Positions 2,949-58,561 of a stretch of DNA of 64,000 bases are shown one piece after another (the first letter of the stretch is position 1; each line of letters begins with the position of its first letter). The DNA is from Patescibacteria group bacterium (GTDB taxonomy: Bacteria > Patescibacteriota > Saccharimonadia > Saccharimonadales > CAYUUR01): positions 3,502 to 67,501 of the forward strand of contig JBPOIH010000008.1 in assembly GCA_052034685.1 (NCBI GenBank). The letters run 5' to 3'. The notes under the pieces are model-generated. The model did not search any database. It saw only the letters and a program-made list of their open reading frames with translations, and was not told the origin of the DNA. Both the position numbers and the translations under genes were made by a program.

Positions 2949-3989
2949 ATGAGCATTATTAGTGGTGTTTCAGATTTCTTTGGTCTCGATATTGGCACAT
3001 CGGCGATTCGTATGGTGCAATTGACAGGCAGCGGAGCAGTAAAGTCGCTGGTTAAGTATGCGTATGTGCCTGTTGATCCAAAGATTTCCATGAGCGATTC
3101 CAAGGCCGACCAGCAAAAGCTGGTACAAGTTGTGAAAGAACTGATTAGCGAAGCAAAAGTGTCGACCAAAAACGTTGCGGTGGGCTTGCCTTCTGCAAAG
3201 GTATTTACCACAGTCGTAGATATTGACCGTTTGTCGACGGATGAACTCGCCAAGACAATTCGCTTCCAAGCAGATTCACTCATACCGACACCACTGGCAG
3301 ATTCCAAGATAGATTGGGCATTATTAGGCGATTCGCCAAAGGACAAGACAAAAGTTGAAATATTGCTTTCGAGCGTAACCAACGAATTTGTAGAAAACCG
3401 TCTTGATATGCTTGAGTCAATTGGGCTTAATGTCATAGCATTTGAACCAGATAATCTTGCGCTGACGCGTGCACTAACACAGCCGGACGCGCCAGGGGCG
3501 CAGATGGTGCTTGATATCGGCTCCAAGAACACCGATCTTGTTATTACGATGAATGGATCACCGCGCCTGACGCGTTCAATCCCAACAGGTTCAGAAGCAA
3601 TCATTAGAGCTGCCATGCAGAACCTCAGCATTGACGAAAAGCAAGCCCAGCAATTTGTGTTCAAGTTTGGCCTCGGCAAAGATAAGCTCGAAGGACAGAT
3701 CTACAATGCCATTATCGGTACAGTAGAGATATTGACCGGCGAGATAGAGAAGTCAATCAAATTCTTCCAGACACGTTATACGGACGCCAAACTAGACAAA
3801 ATTGTCGTAACGGGCGGTGCTTCATCATTACCAGAATTCCCGCTCCACATAGCGAATAAGTTTGCTATGAGCGTAGAAATTGGTAATGCCTGGCGCAATG
3901 TATCGTTTGATCAATCGCAACAAAATGACCTACTCGCTGTGTCCAACAGCTTCGGCGTGGCGGTAGGGTTAGCGGAGAGAAACGAATGA
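2949..3989 (+). CDS. pilM: Type IV pilus assembly protein PilM (actin-like ATPase fold)
   Basis: N-terminus FFGLDIGTSAIRMVQL is typical of PilM/FtsA-like proteins. The stop overlaps the next start (ATGA). It lies upstream of pilN/O-like genes. Confidence 0.85.
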   Translation: MSIISGVSDFFGLDIGTSAIRMVQLTGSGAVKSLVKYAYVPVDPKISMSDSKADQQKLVQVVKELISEAKVSTKNVAVGLPSAKVFTTVVDIDRLSTDELAKTIRFQADSLIPTPLADSKIDWALLGDSPKDKTKVEILLSSVTNEFVENRLDMLESIGLNVIAFEPDNLALTRALTQPDAPGAQMVLDIGSKNTDLVITMNGSPRLTRSIPTGSEAIIRAAMQNLSIDEKQAQQFVFKFGLGKDKLEGQIYNAIIGTVEILTGEIEKSIKFFQTRYTDAKLDKIVVTGGASSLPEFPLHIANKFAMSVEIGNAWRNVSFDQSQQNDLLAVSNSFGVAVGLAERNE

Positions 3990-35372: not shown

Positions 35373-36896
35373 ATGACCAAAAAAGTAAAAACTACAAAAC
35401 GCAAAACCAGAAAAACCCCTGTACGAGTGGGCGGCAAACGACATTTTGCAGATTTTGCAATGTGGCAAAAAATTCTCGTAGTTGTGTTGTTTGCAGGTGT
35501 TGTTTCAGCGGCTTCTATTGCAGTCTATGCTCAGATGAAAGAACGCCAACTGATCGCCAAGGCGTCATCATACAGTAAAGTAGATATTCACAGTAATCCA
35601 AAAAGCAGCGCCGGAGTTACTTTTAGCGCCTGTAAGTTATTGAGTGGCGACAATTACAAGATTACGATCCTGGCTGTTAAATCTCCAAAAGTGTCAAACG
35701 CTGCGGTGGCAATAAAAGTATACAGAAAATCTGGCAGTACACAGAGTTATGCAAGCCAGGTTACTTCGAAGAGTTGGTGGGGTGGTGAGGTCTCGGCACT
35801 GCAACTCGTGACCTCTAAAAGCAAAGGAGATGAGCTGGTGTTTACTGCGGTAAGTAAGTCTGGCACCTCAGCACCGCGCTATAGTACTCAACCGGTGCGG
35901 AAGTCATTCAAATCAACCAGTGCATACGAGGCTGCGCTGCGTGATTTCCAGGCGTCTACAGTAAGCCCAAGTGCTCTAACTGACTGCAACAAGCCAGCGC
36001 CAAACCCAGTGGCAACTTCTACATGCCTGTCTCGTTCAAGTAGTAATAAACTGTCGGTGAGTAGATTGCAAAAAACACGCTATGTTAACGGTACGATTCC
36101 AAAGAATACTGTCATAAACGCCTCACAAGCCTATTGGGACGGTACCGATGCAAGCGGTAATCCAATATCATGGGCTATCACTGTTGATGGCACTGGCCCG
36201 GCTTGCTGGTATGGAGGCAAATTCACTGGCGCTTGGGACGACAAATCACGATCCGTGACCTGGTCTAAGGACTACCATCATGCTGGGGCTGTGACGATCC
36301 GAATGGACAGGTTTCTCGTAGAGGGTCTACGTGCTCATAATCAGGGCGACGGTATACGTATGGAATCTGGCGGTAGCAATTTCCACGTCAAAGACGTCTA
36401 CCTTTCTGATATTCACGATGATTGTGTTGAGAACGATTTTTTGCACACGGGAACGGTCGAGAACTCTTTGTTCGACGGTTGTTACTCGGGTATTAGTGCT
36501 GCAACCTTTGAAGGAATTGACCGTAATGGAGTGAATGATACGTGGACATTCAAAAACAACTTGCTGAGAATGAAACCGTTTAACACAATGTTCAAGCCAG
36601 AAAAGTATGGGGCTTATGGCCATGCAATGCTGTTTAAGGGTTGGTATGAGCCAAATCGTGGGCCGAAGCTGGTCCTAGAGAACAATATCTTCCGGGCTGA
36701 TCAGAAAGCCAACATTGGCGATCTGCAAATCCCTAAGTATGCCGAACTAAAGAGTTGCAAAAACAACACTTTTGTCTGGCTCGGCAAGGGGCCTTTCCCA
36801 TACAATTTACCGAGTTGCTTTAAGATTACCACCGACAAAAAGGTGTGGGACAATGCAGTAGACAAATGGAAAGCCGCCCACCCGGCTGTCAAATAG
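35373..36896 (+). CDS. Membrane-anchored exported protein (507 aa), function unknown, possibly carbohydrate-active
   Basis: Basic N-terminus plus a TM helix. The C-terminal half has beta-helix-like patterns (DDCVENDF...FDGCYSGISA). Lies next to GH15/GT4 genes. Confidence 0.4.
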   Translation: MTKKVKTTKRKTRKTPVRVGGKRHFADFAMWQKILVVVLFAGVVSAASIAVYAQMKERQLIAKASSYSKVDIHSNPKSSAGVTFSACKLLSGDNYKITILAVKSPKVSNAAVAIKVYRKSGSTQSYASQVTSKSWWGGEVSALQLVTSKSKGDELVFTAVSKSGTSAPRYSTQPVRKSFKSTSAYEAALRDFQASTVSPSALTDCNKPAPNPVATSTCLSRSSSNKLSVSRLQKTRYVNGTIPKNTVINASQAYWDGTDASGNPISWAITVDGTGPACWYGGKFTGAWDDKSRSVTWSKDYHHAGAVTIRMDRFLVEGLRAHNQGDGIRMESGGSNFHVKDVYLSDIHDDCVENDFLHTGTVENSLFDGCYSGISAATFEGIDRNGVNDTWTFKNNLLRMKPFNTMFKPEKYGAYGHAMLFKGWYEPNRGPKLVLENNIFRADQKANIGDLQIPKYAELKSCKNNTFVWLGKGPFPYNLPSCFKITTDKKVWDNAVDKWKAAHPAVK

Positions 36897-36914
36897 TCAT
36901 GTATTCAAACAAAA

Positions 36915-36944
36915 AAGAACCCCTCGGATTAACGAGGGGTTCTT
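36915..36944. terminator. Bidirectional intrinsic terminator
   Basis: AAGAACCCCTCG gattaa CGAGGGGTTCTT, flanked by an A-run and a T/C-run, between convergent genes. Confidence 0.75.
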
Positions 36945-36952
36945 CCTAACAT

Positions 36953-37255
36953 TTAGTAACGGTTGTTTGAATAACCGCCACCGTTGTTGTCGCGTGGTGG
37001 ACGCTTTTCTTGTGGACGAGCTTCGTTCACAAGAATACGGCGACCGCCAAGCTCTGAGTCGTGAAGTGCCTTCATTGCAGCTTTAGCTTCGTCGTCATTT
37101 TCATACTCGACAAAACCAAAACCCTTTGAGCGACCGGTATCACGATCAGTGATAACTTTTGCAGAAAGTACTGTACCGTGTGCGGCAAATACTTCTTGCA
37201 GTTCGTCATCGGTAGTTGAGTAGGGGAGGCCCCCTACGAATAACTTACTAGCCAT
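36953..37255 (-). CDS. RRM-type RNA-binding protein
   Basis: RNP-2 (KLFVGGL) and RNP-1 (KGFGFVEY) motifs, with a Gly/Arg/Asn-rich tail. Confidence 0.9.
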   Translation of the reverse strand: MASKLFVGGLPYSTTDDELQEVFAAHGTVLSAKVITDRDTGRSKGFGFVEYENDDEAKAAMKALHDSELGGRRILVNEARPQEKRPPRDNNGGGYSNNRY

Positions 37256-52044: not shown

Positions 52045-52671
52045 ATGAATATTGACCTGACCGGCATTAACATTCTGTTTTACCTTGTTTCGCTGATTTT
52101 TGCCATTGGTATACACGAGGCGATGCACGGGTATGCGGCGTTTTGGCTTGGTGACGACACGGCGCGGCAAGAGGGTCGGTTAACGCTCAACCCGCTCAAA
52201 CATATTGACCCCGTCCTGACGGTACTTATGCCGATGATGCTTCTGTTGCTTGGTCTACCTCCGTTTTTGGCTGCCAAACCAGTGCCGTTTAACCCGATGC
52301 GGGTTAAATATGAGGAATTTGGTGCAGCGCTGATTGCCCTAGCAGGTCCGCTGACTAACTTTGCCTTAGCCGCGTTCACTGCTGTTCTACTCAGGCTATT
52401 TGTAGGTATCGATTCATTGTATCTACTGCAGGCTTTGTCGATCTTCTTAGTAGTTAACGTAGCTATCTTTGTCTTTAATATGATACCGTTTCCGCCGCTC
52501 GATGGTTCGCGCGTGCTCTATGCAGTGGCACCAGCCCCAGTGCAACGCGTTATGGAGCAGATTGAACAGATGGGTCTCATCATCATCTTGATATCTTTTG
52601 CGTTGCTCTACAGTGTGATCGGTCCATTCCTACGAGATATGAACCAAGCAGTCCTACAATTTTTGCTTTAA
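52045..52671 (+). CDS. Site-2 protease family (M50) membrane metalloprotease
   Basis: HEAMHG (HExxH) within a TM helix, LNPLKHIDP, and a downstream PPLDGS (NPDG-like) motif. TGCTATACT box 8 nt upstream of the ATG. Confidence 0.8.
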   Translation: MNIDLTGINILFYLVSLIFAIGIHEAMHGYAAFWLGDDTARQEGRLTLNPLKHIDPVLTVLMPMMLLLLGLPPFLAAKPVPFNPMRVKYEEFGAALIALAGPLTNFALAAFTAVLLRLFVGIDSLYLLQALSIFLVVNVAIFVFNMIPFPPLDGSRVLYAVAPAPVQRVMEQIEQMGLIIILISFALLYSVIGPFLRDMNQAVLQFLL

Positions 52672-52699
52672 GAATTTGTAGCGAAGGCGTAGAATAAAA

Positions 52700-52828
52700 G
52701 TGGCTGATGCCAAAAAATGATAATCTGAATATTTATCATTAGGGAGCTCAATATTCGTGTCGGCCGGGGGTCGACATATGAGAGCACCCACCTGGGTTCA
52801 TTCCAGGTTGTCATACGGTATCAGCCAC
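52700..52828 (+). ncRNA. Candidate 129-nt structured RNA with a four-way-junction (cloverleaf-like) fold
   Basis: 12-bp closing helix GUGGCUGAUGCC/GGUAUCAGCCAC. Arms AAUGAUAA/UUAUCAUU, GGGAGCUC...GAGAGCACCC enclosing UGUCGGCC/GGUCGACA, and CCUGG-GUUCAUU-CCAGG. G-U pairs form only on the plus strand. TAGAAT at 52690-52695. Confidence 0.5.
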
Positions 52829-52833
52829 AAAAA

Positions 52834-52857
52834 AGCTCGAGAAAATCCTCGAGCTTC
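52834..52857. terminator. Bidirectional terminator hairpin
   Basis: AGCTCGAG aaaatc CTCGAGCT. A6 upstream gives a U-run for the minus-strand tRNA operon, and CTTCTGTTT lies downstream. Confidence 0.7.
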
Positions 52858-52870
52858 TTCTGTTTATAAA

Positions 52871-52935
52871 GGTCGGGATGACAAGACTTGAACCTGCGAC
52901 CTCACGGCCCCCAGCCGTACAAGGGGTCCCCACAA
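52871..52935 (-). pseudogene. Truncated tRNA-Pro(GGG)-like 3' fragment (no acceptor 5' strand or D-arm)
   Basis: Reverse complement gives TACGG-CTGGGGG-CCGTG-AGGTC-GCAGG-TTCAAGT-CTTGT-CATCCCG-A-CC. No complementary 5' acceptor strand lies upstream. Confidence 0.65.
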
Positions 52936-52943
52936 AATCTTTA

Positions 52944-53019
52944 TGGTCAGGGTGAGAGGACTTGAACCTCCGGTCTCCGGACCCCCAGCCCGGCGCTTTA
53001 CCAACTAAGCTACACCCTG
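52944..53019 (-). tRNA. tRNA-Pro (anticodon GGG)
   Basis: Reverse complement CAGGGTG-TA-GCTT...AAGC-G-CCGGG-CTGGGGG-TCCGG-AGACC-GGAGG-TTCAAGT-CCTCT-CACCCTG-A-CCA. Confidence 0.85.
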
Positions 53020-53043
53020 TTAACAGAGGTATTTTAGCGTATT

Positions 53044-54072
53044 CTAACGTATCAGCATAGAGTCGCCGTAGGAGAGGAAGTGATACTTTTCTTCAACGGC
53101 CTTCTCGTAGGCTAATTTGAGGTTGTCCCAACCGGCGAAAGCAGCTGTGAGCATCAGTACCGTGCTGCGTGGCGCGTGGAAGTTGGTGAGTAATTGGTCA
53201 ACTATCTTAAACTCATAGCCTGGATAGATGAAGATGTTGGCCTCGCCAGATAGGTTTTGTGGCTTGGCGTCTAGGATGTCAGCTGCACAATACTCAAGTG
53301 TGCGTGTGACGGTGGTACCGATGGCGCAGACTTTATTACGGGACTTTTTGGCTTGCCGAATTGCGGCAACGGTTTCTTCAGGTACCTCATAATACTCACT
53401 GTGCATCTGGTGTTCTTCTACGTTGTCAGTGCGGATGGGCAGGAAGGTGCCAAGACCGACATGCAGAGTGAGGTAGGCAATGTGTACGCCTTTGTTGCGT
53501 AGTCTGGCCTCTAGCTCCTCAGTAAAGTTGAGTGAGGCAGTTGGAGCGGCCACAGAACCGGCGTCACGCGCAAAAACGGTCTGATACCGCTCAGTATCAG
53601 TTTGGTCGGCGTGACGCTTCATGTAGGGCGGTAAAGGAACTTCACCGTAACGTTCGGCGAGGTCAAGTAAGTTTTCCTCTGTTTGGACAATCGCCAGTCC
53701 ACCGTCTAGTACCTCCTTGACGATAATAGTGTGCATATGAACGGTTAGCACTTCACCTGTTCGGATACGGCCACGATACAGTACTTTGTGTTGATGGACG
53801 CCAAATACTTTACCATGCTTTTCGATAAGCAATAACTCACGTTCCTTGCCGTCGTTGTTTTTTGCGATCAAACGCGCCTTAATAACCTTCGTGTTATTGA
53901 GAACCAATAGATCTCCAGTGTCCAGGTAGTCAGCAAGATCAGCGTAGTAATGATGGCTGATGTCACCAGATTTTTTGTCCAAGACTAATAATCGCGTACT
54001 GCCGCGTTGTTCAGGTGGTCGGTCGGCAATCAGTTCGTCAGGGAGTTGGTAATCATAGTCGCTAATTTTCAT
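53044..54072 (-). CDS. queA: S-adenosylmethionine:tRNA ribosyltransferase-isomerase
   Basis: MKISDYDYQLPDELIADRPPEQRGSTRLLVL, PLPPYM, VGLGTF. I prefer the ATG at 54072 (TACAAT 7 nt upstream). The upstream 124 codons of the ORF look non-genic. Confidence 0.9.
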   Translation of the reverse strand: MKISDYDYQLPDELIADRPPEQRGSTRLLVLDKKSGDISHHYYADLADYLDTGDLLVLNNTKVIKARLIAKNNDGKERELLLIEKHGKVFGVHQHKVLYRGRIRTGEVLTVHMHTIIVKEVLDGGLAIVQTEENLLDLAERYGEVPLPPYMKRHADQTDTERYQTVFARDAGSVAAPTASLNFTEELEARLRNKGVHIAYLTLHVGLGTFLPIRTDNVEEHQMHSEYYEVPEETVAAIRQAKKSRNKVCAIGTTVTRTLEYCAADILDAKPQNLSGEANIFIYPGYEFKIVDQLLTNFHAPRSTVLMLTAAFAGWDNLKLAYEKAVEEKYHFLSYGDSMLIR

Positions 54073-54882: not shown

Positions 54883-55233
54883 GCTAGATTATTGGCTAGT
54901 CGCCGCGTATTTTATACGGGGAGGAAAGTCCGGGCAGCATAGGGAATGACAGTTGCTAACGGCAACCGAGGGAAACCTTAGGGAAAGTGCCACAGAAACG
55001 ATACCGCCCAGCCTCGGTTGGGAACGGGTGAAACGAGTGAGGTAAAAGCTCACAGCTGCCTACGGTGACGTAGGGAGGAGGTAAACCCTGTCTGCTGCAA
55101 GGAGATAGACCTACTAGGGTTCCCGCCACGGTTTATCGCTTATCCGCTCGACCTTGTTGGTGACAACAAGGCTAGATAGATGATTAGCCCTCAGTTTACT
55201 GGGGACAGAACCCGGCTTATAGATAATCTAGCT
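54883..55233 (+). ncRNA. rnpB: RNase P RNA (bacterial type A)
   Basis: P1 pairing AGCTAGATTAT/ATAATCTAGCT. Conserved GAGGAAAGTCCGGGC (P4 5' strand) and ACAGAACCCGGCTTA (P4 3' strand). Confidence 0.9.
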
Positions 55234-55259
55234 TTATAACAAGCGCTGTACCGCGCGAG

Positions 55260-56969: not shown

Positions 56970-58490
56970 TTAAGTTATGCTTGAGCTTTGACGACGATAT
57001 TGCAAAGCCTCGCTGACATGTGCAGGTGTGGTGTCAGCGCTTTGCTCCAGGTCGGCGATAGTGCGCGCTACCTTAATGCAGCGCATGTAGCCTCGAGCAG
57101 AAAGCCCGAGTTTGCTCGCAGCTCTGTTTAGTAGCTGTTCCGCAGCAGGGCTGAGTTGGCTGTAACGTTTGATGTCGGTATTGTTCATGGTGCGGTTCAG
57201 TCGGGCTGGCTCATAGCGTTGCGCTTGTAGTTGCCGAGCTCTCTCAACCCGTTCGAGAATCGCGCTGCTTGGCTCTTCGTTGGTATCGGTGTTGAGAAGC
57301 CGTTCGTGAGCGACTTCCTCTACCTCAACGTATAGATCAATACGGTCAAGGATGGGCCCCGAAAGCTTCTTTTCGTAGTTAATAATTTGCTGCGGAAGGC
57401 AGGTGCAGGCACGCCGACTTCCGTAATAACCACACGGGCAGGGGTTTGCTGTGGCGACCATAATAAACCGAGCTGGATATGTGACACTCTGTTTTGCTCG
57501 AGCAACGTGGATGACTCCGTCTTCGAGCGGTTGCCGCAGTGCTTCTATGACAGAGCGATTGAACTCAGGAAACTCATCAAAAAACAAAACACCGTGGTGA
57601 CTTAGGCTAATCTCGCCCGGCAGCGGACGAGAGCCGCCACCGAGTATCGCAGTATTGCTGGAACTATGATGCGGCGAGCGGAAGGGCCGAGTGTTTACGA
57701 TCTCCTCAAAAGTATTACTGGCAAGACTATGAAGATGTGTTACCTCAAGCATCTCTTCTCTGGTGAGAGCTGGCATTATGGTCGGTAGAGCTTGCGCCAA
57801 CATACTCTTACCTGTTCCGGGCGGCCCGTTTAAAATTACGTTATGTCCGCCAGCTGCAGCTATCTCAAGCGCACGTTTGGCTCGTTTCTGACCAATGACA
57901 TGTGCAAAGTTATGGTCCGCTTGGTTGCTGTATTGAGGGGGTAGATACGAGTCTTCGTTTGTTTGGTGTTCTGTAATCTGCTTGTGCTCGGCTAAGTGCT
58001 CGTACAACTGTTTAAGACTTGTGATTGGGAACAGGGAAATACCCGGTATAAGACTTGCTTGTGCAAGGTTAGCTTGTGGAATGACAAAATGCGAATAGCC
58101 TTTCTTGCGGCCCGCCATCAGTTTGCCAATAATGCCACGAACCGGTCGGGTACTTCCGTCTAAACCCAATTCGCCTATGTAGAGTGTTTCTTTGGGAAAG
58201 ACAGGTTTCCCCATGCTTGCGTTTATCAGAATCGCCGCTGCAATTGATATGTCAAAGCCAGCGCCGTCTTTTGGAATATCTGCAGGCGCCAGGTTAATGG
58301 TAATCCGTTTGCGAGGCAAGGGGATGAGTGAATTGGCAAAGGCAGCGCGCAATCGTTCCTTTGCTTCATCAACGGCTTTGCTAGCGGCGCCAACGATTAC
58401 CATACCAGGCAAGCTGTTACTTATGTGGCATTCAACCTCGATGATTGTGCCATCGGTCCCACTCTCAATTATACATTTGGTTGCACCCAT
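56970..58490 (-). CDS. comM: YifB/ComM family Mg-chelatase-like AAA+ ATPase
   Basis: N-terminal Lon-like domain (MVIVGAASKAVDEAKERL), Walker A GPPGTGKS, Walker B VLFFDEF, C-terminal Mg_chelatase_C. Start set at the ATG at 58490. Confidence 0.9.
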   Translation of the reverse strand: MGATKCIIESGTDGTIIEVECHISNSLPGMVIVGAASKAVDEAKERLRAAFANSLIPLPRKRITINLAPADIPKDGAGFDISIAAAILINASMGKPVFPKETLYIGELGLDGSTRPVRGIIGKLMAGRKKGYSHFVIPQANLAQASLIPGISLFPITSLKQLYEHLAEHKQITEHQTNEDSYLPPQYSNQADHNFAHVIGQKRAKRALEIAAAGGHNVILNGPPGTGKSMLAQALPTIMPALTREEMLEVTHLHSLASNTFEEIVNTRPFRSPHHSSSNTAILGGGSRPLPGEISLSHHGVLFFDEFPEFNRSVIEALRQPLEDGVIHVARAKQSVTYPARFIMVATANPCPCGYYGSRRACTCLPQQIINYEKKLSGPILDRIDLYVEVEEVAHERLLNTDTNEEPSSAILERVERARQLQAQRYEPARLNRTMNNTDIKRYSQLSPAAEQLLNRAASKLGLSARGYMRCIKVARTIADLEQSADTTPAHVSEALQYRRQSSSIT

Positions 58491-58529
58491 ATTGCTTACG
58501 CTATTATAACGTATGGTTTGTGCGATATC

Positions 58530-58561
58530 AAAAAAACCTGCCGTTATGAGGCAGGTTTTTT
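58530..58561. terminator. Bidirectional terminator hairpin
   Basis: A7-CCTGCC gttatga GGCAGG-T6. Confidence 0.7.

Follow-up and report, generated by a model that had tools for sequence, protein, structure and literature searches.

The 64,000-nucleotide (nt) stretch of Patescibacteria DNA analyzed here (referred to as the window) contains, between an M50 protease gene and a tRNA-Pro gene, a 129-nt element that is a real, independently transcribed and strongly conserved structured RNA of Saccharibacteria. The element is probably an unusually small 6S RNA (ssrS; 127–138 nt across the family) and not a wholly new class of RNA. 6S RNAs sequester RNA polymerase by mimicking an open promoter. The element aligns end to end with the Rfam 6S model, RF00013, and homologues from other Saccharibacteria support a covarying rod with a large central bubble. 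It probably represents a lineage-specific miniature 6S RNA which falls under curated thresholds and has an unusual, conserved two-state design, as its helices can be rearranged into a second fold, a four-way junction.

A conserved RNA gene of Saccharibacteria

The open reading frame upstream of the RNA (52045–52671) encodes a Pfam Peptidase_M50 protein, and the RNA starts ∼29 nt past its stop codon. A tRNA-Pro(GGG) gene was identified by ARAGORN downstream of the RNA, on the minus strand (52944–53019). This is the location given in the initial annotation, which had proposed a novel structured RNA from the sequence of the window. The features of the gene are as follows:

52668–52673, plus strand: weak −35-like hexamer TTAAGA, found in a consensus scan (9 of 12 matches, 16-nt spacer to TAGAAT) and overlapping the M50 stop codon
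52690–52695, plus strand: −10 box TAGAAT of the RNA's own promoter, with a TATAAT-like hexamer at the equivalent place in homologues
52700–52828, plus strand: the RNA itself, proposed compact 6S RNA, 129 nt, defined by its fold and by R1 and Rfam 6S matches
52833–52856, plus strand: terminator hairpin AAGCUCGAG-AAAAUC-CUCGAGCUU, then CUUCUGUUU; 9 base pairs (bp), five of them G-C

With the M50 protein as query, 80 loci were found in reference genomes, every one of them in Saccharibacteria; together with the window they form the set of 81 sequences in which conservation was assessed. An nhmmer search with the 129-nt query placed a homologue right after the M50 gene in 74 of the 80 loci, in each case on the strand of that gene. 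A family covariance model built from the homologues (R1) identified 77 copies among the 81 sequences, one per locus and always in the same place and on the same strand, directly downstream of the M50 gene; in the window it matched a single copy (52699–52827, 113 bits). The covariation among these 77 homologues, on which the novel-RNA proposal had been made to depend, supports both of the alternative pairings that are described below. Two further loci lack a clear R1 match but retain traces of the RNA. L072 contains a very divergent copy (3157–3262, 21 bits) in which GGGAGC...GAGCACCCAUCUG is kept, and in L018 an intact 5′ half of the RNA is joined to an unrelated 3′ half (3381–3508), which may reflect a chimeric assembly, an insertion or decay of the copy. 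The RNA was not matched downstream of the M50 gene in L065, nor in L042, in which the contig ends ∼40 nt past this gene. The lengths of the family members are evenly distributed over the three residues modulo 3, and therefore no coding constraint is evident. The substitutions follow base pairs. A protein-coding reading was rejected on these grounds, in agreement with the earlier view of the element as non-coding.

Signals for transcription were counted in 73 homologues, which were also used for the closing-helix and fold-energy counts. The TAGAAT hexamer had been read as the RNA's own −10 box, and a TATAAT-like box is indeed present upstream of the RNA in 69 of the 73 homologues (51 perfect, 18 with a 5/6 match) within 48 nt before the conserved core; a perfect TATAAT occurs in ∼3% of random 48-nt segments from the same loci. 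The strong hairpin reported downstream of the RNA was also found, with a U-rich tail (CTTCTGTTTA). A strict terminator pattern scan identified a site in 42 of the 73 homologues; ∼30 of these are separate hairpins with a U-run, and in ∼10 a U-run directly follows the closing stem. Most homologues have a separate G+C-rich terminator hairpin with a U-run or the closing stem and then a U-run. As far as can be read from the sequence, the conserved −10 box and the terminators mark the RNA as its own transcription unit. A gene on the minus strand was rejected, as the minus-strand fold is weaker (−47.3 kcal/mol, z = −4.6), conserved U-G pairs would become C-A mismatches and the orientation relative to the M50 gene is constant in homologues; the plus strand is the sense strand, as had been argued from the window. 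An A-run (52829–52834) precedes the terminator hairpin, and the minus-strand reading is a hairpin followed by UUUUUUGUGG. The terminator (52829–52856) could be bidirectional and serve the convergent tRNA-Pro gene as well; the pattern scan reported the plus-strand site only.

Two mutually exclusive folds

The minimum-free-energy fold of 52700–52828 (plus strand) is the four-way junction described in the initial annotation, with an energy of −59.6 kcal/mol (z = −7.4); 200 shuffled sequences gave −32.5 ± 3.7 kcal/mol, and none folded as well. Both small hairpins of this junction covary in homologues, but it is only one of two conserved folds that exclude each other. In the other fold, AUGAUAAUCUG pairs with CAGGUUGUCAT, which gives a rod whose central bubble has 14 nt on each side. 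Both folds share the closing stem and the apical arm. The elements are as follows:

52700–52711, plus strand: 5′ strand of the closing stem P1, GUGGCUGAUGCC, 12 bp with 52817–52828
52716–52740, plus strand: alternative 5′ hairpin AAUGAUAA-UCUGAAUAU-UUAUCAUU, part of the minimum-free-energy fold; competes with P2
52717–52727, plus strand: 5′ strand of the P2 ('downstream') helix, AUGAUAAUCUG, 11 bp with 52804–52814; most conserved stretch and proposed template of the product RNA
52728–52741, plus strand: central bubble, 5′ strand, AAUAUUUAUCAUUA, 14 nt; product RNA proposed to start at U31 (52730)
52742–52789, plus strand: apical ('upstream') arm GGGAGCUC...GAGCACCC, 48 nt, from RNAalifold and covariation
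52790–52803, plus strand: 3′ strand of the central bubble, ACCUGGGUUCAUUC, 14 nt
52790–52808, plus strand: alternative 3′ hairpin ACCUGGG-UUCAU-UCCAGGU, part of the minimum-free-energy fold and proposed release hairpin; competes with P2
52804–52814, plus strand: 3′ strand of P2, CAGGUUGUCAU, paired with 52717–52727
52817–52828, plus strand: 3′ strand of P1, GGUAUCAGCCAC, 12 bp with 52700–52711

The 12-bp closing helix of the original description is present, and a closing helix was found in all 73 homologues with differing sequences. The mean pairing energy of the closing flanks was −20.6 kcal/mol for cognate and −12.7 kcal/mol for non-cognate combinations, which served as a specificity control, and covariation was detected in the inner six pairs of P1. 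In a subgroup of nine loci (L076, L036, L069, L030, L015, L055, L034, L056 and L074) the outer closing stem reads UCGGGU.../...ACCCGA, and its 5′ side is interrupted by ∼15–18 extra nt, ∼30 nt upstream of the conserved AUGAU. The insertion is lineage-specific and can form a small hairpin of its own, for example GGGCC-UUUA-GGCCC in L069.

The apical arm is the sole element that RNAalifold predicts on the structure-blind MAFFT alignment, with compensatory changes in 14 of 16 pairs. The other elements were missed because the closing stem is misaligned and the remaining helices are mutually exclusive; each helix was therefore tested separately, and the covariance model was built. In the resulting model-based alignment of 77 sequences (76 distinct), compensatory changes were found in 15 of 19 pairs of the arm, the length of which is 47–48 nt in 71 of the 77 homologues. 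The 5′ strand of the bubble is 14 nt long in 59 of the 77 (range 13–17 nt, mode 14), and the 3′ strand comprises 12–18 nt; both strands can also join the alternative hairpins. The fixed geometry of the bubble and arm is what would be expected if the RNA must fit a protein. A motif within the arm (52750–52755 and 52779–52783) is near-invariant, with UAU opposite GUG as U-G, A-U and U-G pairs; its A-U pair is invariant in all 76 distinct sequences, and the flanking A residues are conserved. Speculatively, this motif may correspond to the position of a −35-like contact in a 6S rod.

P2, the helix that defines the rod, is paired in 92.7% of cells of the MAFFT alignment, compared with 29–50% when its partners are slid by 1–3 columns, and in 95% of cells of the model-based alignment. 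Its pair 23–110 is A-U in 46 sequences, U-A in 21 and U-G in 9. In the model-based alignment the whole rod has 94.5% of its cells paired, with compensatory changes in 30 of 36 pairs; this alignment is fitted to the rod and thus inflates these counts in its favor. None of 500 shuffles reached this level, and the slid controls gave 39–44%. In the junction, UUGUCAU of the 3′ strand is unpaired, yet it is near-invariant and covaries with 52722–52723. The 5′ hairpin is paired in 86% of cells, its pair 17–41 being A-U in 28 and U-A in 30 sequences, which requires many independent changes on a rough neighbor-joining tree, and its pair 23–35 being A-U in 46 and U-A in 22. In this hairpin the proposed template strand pairs with UUAUCAU, a near-copy of UUGUCAU in the 3′ strand of P2. 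The 3′ hairpin is paired in 86–89% of cells with a few compensatory changes, and its 3′ strand (52804–52808) doubles as the 3′ strand of P2. It corresponds to the CCUGG/CCAGG hairpin that had been likened to a T-arm; the hairpin exists and extends to 7 bp (ACCUGGG/UCCAGGU), but its loop differs between homologues in both sequence and length, and the T-arm identity was therefore rejected.

Covariation links position 23 to each of the two positions with which it can pair, 35 and 110. The triplets 23/35/110 are A/U/U in 46 sequences, U/A/A in 14, U/A/G in 8 and U/U/A in 6; for the 30 sequences with a change at position 23, a compensating partner is thus present in P2 in every case and in the 5′ hairpin in 22. 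This substitution pattern indicates that both alternative pairings are under selection. P2 and the 3′ hairpin persist even in the most distant homologues, in which the 5′ hairpin is weak or absent. When each pairing was enforced, the rod and the junction differed by ∼2 kcal/mol on average, and the rod was more stable in 39 of the 73 homologues.

Relationship to 6S RNA

The element had initially been described as matching no known class of RNA. This did not hold in a permissive Rfam scan of 52600–53050, in which RF00013 aligned end to end on the plus strand (model positions 1–187 on 52698–52831) with a score of 31.2 bits and E = 1.1e-4 for the 451 nt searched. 6S was the only significant family besides tRNA in this region. 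As for the Rfam check proposed at the outset, no clean match was obtained, since all scores are under the RF00013 gathering score of 46.4 bits (by 15 bits for the window), but the 6S alignment is significant and co-linear. The two closing stems coincide, P2 corresponds to the downstream helix and AAUAUUUAUCAUUA to the A/U-rich 5′ bubble, and the 3′ bubbles match each other. At the bubble edge, GGGAGC...GCACCCACCUGG falls on the consensus residues of highest conservation, and the upper-case consensus is matched by CCCACCUGG (GGG...CCCACCUGG at the bubble edge). When divergent homologues were searched (64.6 kb against all 4227 families), RF00013 matched in the same place in L048 (36.0 bits, E = 0.0012), L005 (33.9 bits), L023 (33.6 bits) and L011 (24.2 bits); the E-values were 0.0012–0.0042 for three of them and up to 0.73 overall, so that four of the five matches, including that of the window, fall between 1e-4 and 4e-3. 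Matches to MicC and mir-4850 cover the terminator hairpin only (E ≥ 0.3) and were dismissed as chance. A tRNA, tmRNA or Y-RNA-like reading was also rejected: ARAGORN found no tRNA or tmRNA over the RNA, and no model of these overlapped it at E up to 10. The RNA combines a significant co-linear 6S alignment with a covarying rod, a large central bubble and the potential to form a refolding hairpin.

The resemblance to Escherichia coli 6S RNA extends to details. Both RNAs form a rod that consists of a closing stem, a downstream helix, a large central bubble and an upstream arm. The 5′ bubble is A/U-rich in both (GAUAUUUCAUACCA in E. coli and AAUAUUUAUCAUUA in the window RNA), and the 3′ bubble starts with ACCU. 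In the E. coli ssrS sequence the release hairpin is CCUUGAACC-AAG-GGUUCAAGG, from the CCU of the bubble that begins with ACCU. In E. coli and relatives, synthesis of the product RNA unzips the downstream helix; the 3′ strand of this helix, once freed, pairs with the 3′ bubble strand, and the resulting hairpin drives release (PMC8876501). The hairpin of the window RNA is built of the same two strands; because its bubble also starts with ACCU and its CAGGU is the 3′ strand of P2, the 'T-arm-like' hairpin would be the counterpart of the 6S release hairpin. The two RNAs differ in length (183 nt in E. coli and 129 nt in the window) and in the release hairpin (9 and 7 bp, respectively). The window RNA also has an extra covarying hairpin that is able to sequester the template strand, and its gene is located downstream of the M50 protease gene, unlinked to a 5-formyltetrahydrofolate cyclo-ligase gene.

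A comparison with Bacillus subtilis 6S-1 RNA also reveals common features. In free 6S-1 RNA a short 3′-bubble hairpin is already present, and RNAfold gives weak pairing in the 5′ bubble strand. The latter is unconfirmed by probing in 6S-1, whereas its counterpart in the window RNA covaries. In the window RNA, UUGUCAU and UUAUCAU are near-identical and not complementary, and both compete for the same 5′ strand, which is a further difference from 6S-1. 6S-1 RNAs truncated to the bubble and two short arms remain able to go through the whole 6S cycle in vitro (PMC8876501), so that the small size of the window RNA is no obstacle and a natural mini-6S RNA is plausible.

By analogy with these systems, the compact RNA would bind RNA polymerase and template a product RNA. 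Its working form would be a rod that mimics an open promoter, with P1 of 12 bp, P2 of 11 bp, a 14/14-nt bubble and the 48-nt apical arm, and this rod would occupy the active-site cleft of the holoenzyme of RNA polymerase with the housekeeping sigma factor. When nucleotides are plentiful, the polymerase would use the RNA as a template, first along the 5′ strand of the bubble and next along that of P2, to make a short product RNA. In E. coli 6S, the product RNA starts at U44 of GAU44AUUU. The analogous start in the window RNA would be U31 (52730), with a predicted product 5′-AUUCAGAUUAUCAU, which begins 5′-AUUCAGAUUAUC and is complementary to 52717–52730. About 7 product nucleotides would already open the UCUG/CAGG part of P2. 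Once P2 is unzipped, the freed CAGGU would pair with ACCUG of the 3′ bubble to form the hairpin ACCUGGG/UCCAGGU. The bubble would then collapse and the polymerase be released, in the manner of E. coli 6S. Within the free RNA, the 5′ hairpin AAUGAUAA/UUAUCAUU would sequester the template strand and could represent a closed state, in a near-isoenergetic balance between the rod and the closed four-way junction.

A more tentative extension of this scheme would make the RNA a polymerase decoy of the 6S type that carries its own two-state switch. AUGAUAA and CCAGG, each with two covarying partners, would toggle the RNA between the open-promoter rod and a self-closed junction that hides the template and the downstream helix; we consider such a switch possible, though on balance doubtful. 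If the balance were set by a cellular signal or by the product RNA, this would be a self-gated 6S RNA, and the smallest natural one, in bacteria with minimal regulators. Alternatively, the junction form may have a second function that is unrelated to RNA polymerase.

Several points weigh against the assignment as 6S RNA. All 53 sequences examined, from the window and from 52 loci (40 further loci included), score under the gathering score of RF00013, and in the Rfam scan of the whole window the 6S match is dropped at the speed-filter stage, which is why the RNA is unannotated. The RNA is ∼50 nt shorter than a typical 6S RNA, at 129 nt compared with ∼180–200 nt. A search of E. coli ssrS with R1 gave no match, although this result carries little information, R1 being too lineage-specific. 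The strongly covarying hairpin of the 5′ bubble strand is non-canonical for 6S, in the window the junction is 2.7 kcal/mol more stable than the rod, and the rod pair counts carry the alignment bias mentioned above. Polymerase binding, product-RNA synthesis and the order of refolding rest on inference. It is also possible that a canonical 6S gene lies elsewhere in the genome, of which 64 kb were covered; in these 64 kb a permissive Rfam scan found no further 6S-like candidate.

The stability and covariation of the junction raise the question of whether the RNA instead belongs to a new structured non-coding class in which the four-way junction is functional with a partner other than polymerase, for example as a protein-binding scaffold, the likeness to 6S being convergent or due to chance. 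The junction is the minimum-free-energy fold, its two small hairpins covary (with the many tree changes of pair 17–41) and every Rfam 6S score is under the gathering score. However, such a class would leave unexplained why UUGUCAU is near-invariant and covaries with AUGAUAA, why P2 is kept and the 5′ hairpin lost in distant homologues, and why a co-linear 6S alignment is obtained with E ∼1e-3 after correction for 4227 families. We therefore regard it as unlikely.

Ms1 of Actinobacteria illustrates another possibility. This RNA is much longer than the window RNA, and no sequence similarity between the two was detected. Ms1 is described as structurally related to 6S RNA, with a 6S-like rod and bubble that binds RNA polymerase, but it is reported to bind the core and not the holoenzyme (PMC9130861). 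With this precedent for a 6S-related yet core-binding RNA, and given a rod and bubble of atypical size with an extra 5′ hairpin, the element could be a polymerase-binding RNA of a wider 6S-like kind that acts by another mode, such as core binding or binding without templating. Such a mode seems improbable, as the sequence signature at the bubble edge matches 6S itself, the geometry of the 3′ hairpin implies template-driven release and, beyond the terminator hairpin, no other Rfam family was matched at E up to 10. Computation cannot separate an Ms1-like or non-templating binder from 6S RNA.

A cis-acting part of the M50 transcript (a stabilizer in the 3′ untranslated region (UTR), a processing site or an attenuator) would agree with the position of the RNA, which in 77 of 81 sequences immediately follows the M50 gene in the same orientation (∼29 nt past the stop codon in the window). 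Such a part is nevertheless very improbable given the conserved −10 box between the stop codon and the RNA, the RNA's own terminator, because of which no downstream gene is left to be regulated (tRNA genes, on either strand, come next), and four covarying helices with two folds, which are too elaborate for a terminator or stabilizer. A riboswitch or 5′ UTR leader does not fit, as the RNA is followed by a terminator and then by tRNA genes in either orientation.

The assignment as a compact 6S RNA would be relevant to a group of bacteria in which few regulators are recognized, the Saccharibacteria and other ultrasmall members of the Candidate Phyla Radiation (CPR). A transcriptome paper on TM7x (2022) states that this strain has no validated small RNAs. 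A literature search, the coverage of which was incomplete so that a prior description is possible, found no publication connecting 6S RNA to Saccharibacteria, CPR or Patescibacteria, and no Saccharibacteria data on 6S holoenzyme binding or product RNA. If the assignment is correct, an RNA decoy would still exert global control over RNA polymerase in these reduced genomes, and at ∼130 nt the RNA would be a natural counterpart of the engineered minimal 6S-1 RNAs and would help to define the RNA requirements of the polymerase. The conserved balance between two folds would offer a testable handle on 6S release and recycling. Standard Rfam annotation misses the family; the 77-sequence alignment and R1 could seed a new family or extend RF00013.

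Neighborhood of the RNA gene

Weak, sub-threshold Rfam matches elsewhere in the window, to P9 sRNA (58485–58559, plus strand, 27.5 bits, E = 0.09) and to BSnc120 and the rnk leader (both at 36896–36985), are probably due to chance. Between the terminator and the intact tRNA-Pro gene there is a tRNA-Pro(GGG)-like remnant on the minus strand (52868–52940), which was called by neither ARAGORN nor Rfam. It keeps the anticodon arm (with the loop CUGGGGG), the variable region, the T arm and the 3′ acceptor strand, lacks the 5′ acceptor strand and the D arm, and is about three-quarters identical to the intact gene where the two align. The remnant may be a decayed older copy of the gene or an integration scar. 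Short copies of the tRNA-Pro 3′ end (18–20 nt, 100% identical) lie close to the intact gene in several loci (L009 3351–3370; L023 3757–3774; L025 3738–3755 and 3862–3879). The tRNA that follows the RNA also differs in strand between loci, plus in some and minus in others. These observations suggest repeated integration or inversion at this tRNA.

A class A RNase P RNA is located further downstream in the window (54884–55235, plus strand, 262.7 bits) and lies ∼1–2 kb downstream of the RNA in most loci. The order of M50 protease gene, RNA, tRNA and RNase P RNA recurs in most of the Saccharibacteria loci examined, and, judged by this gene order, the stretch from the M50 gene to RNase P RNA is a conserved cluster of RNA genes.

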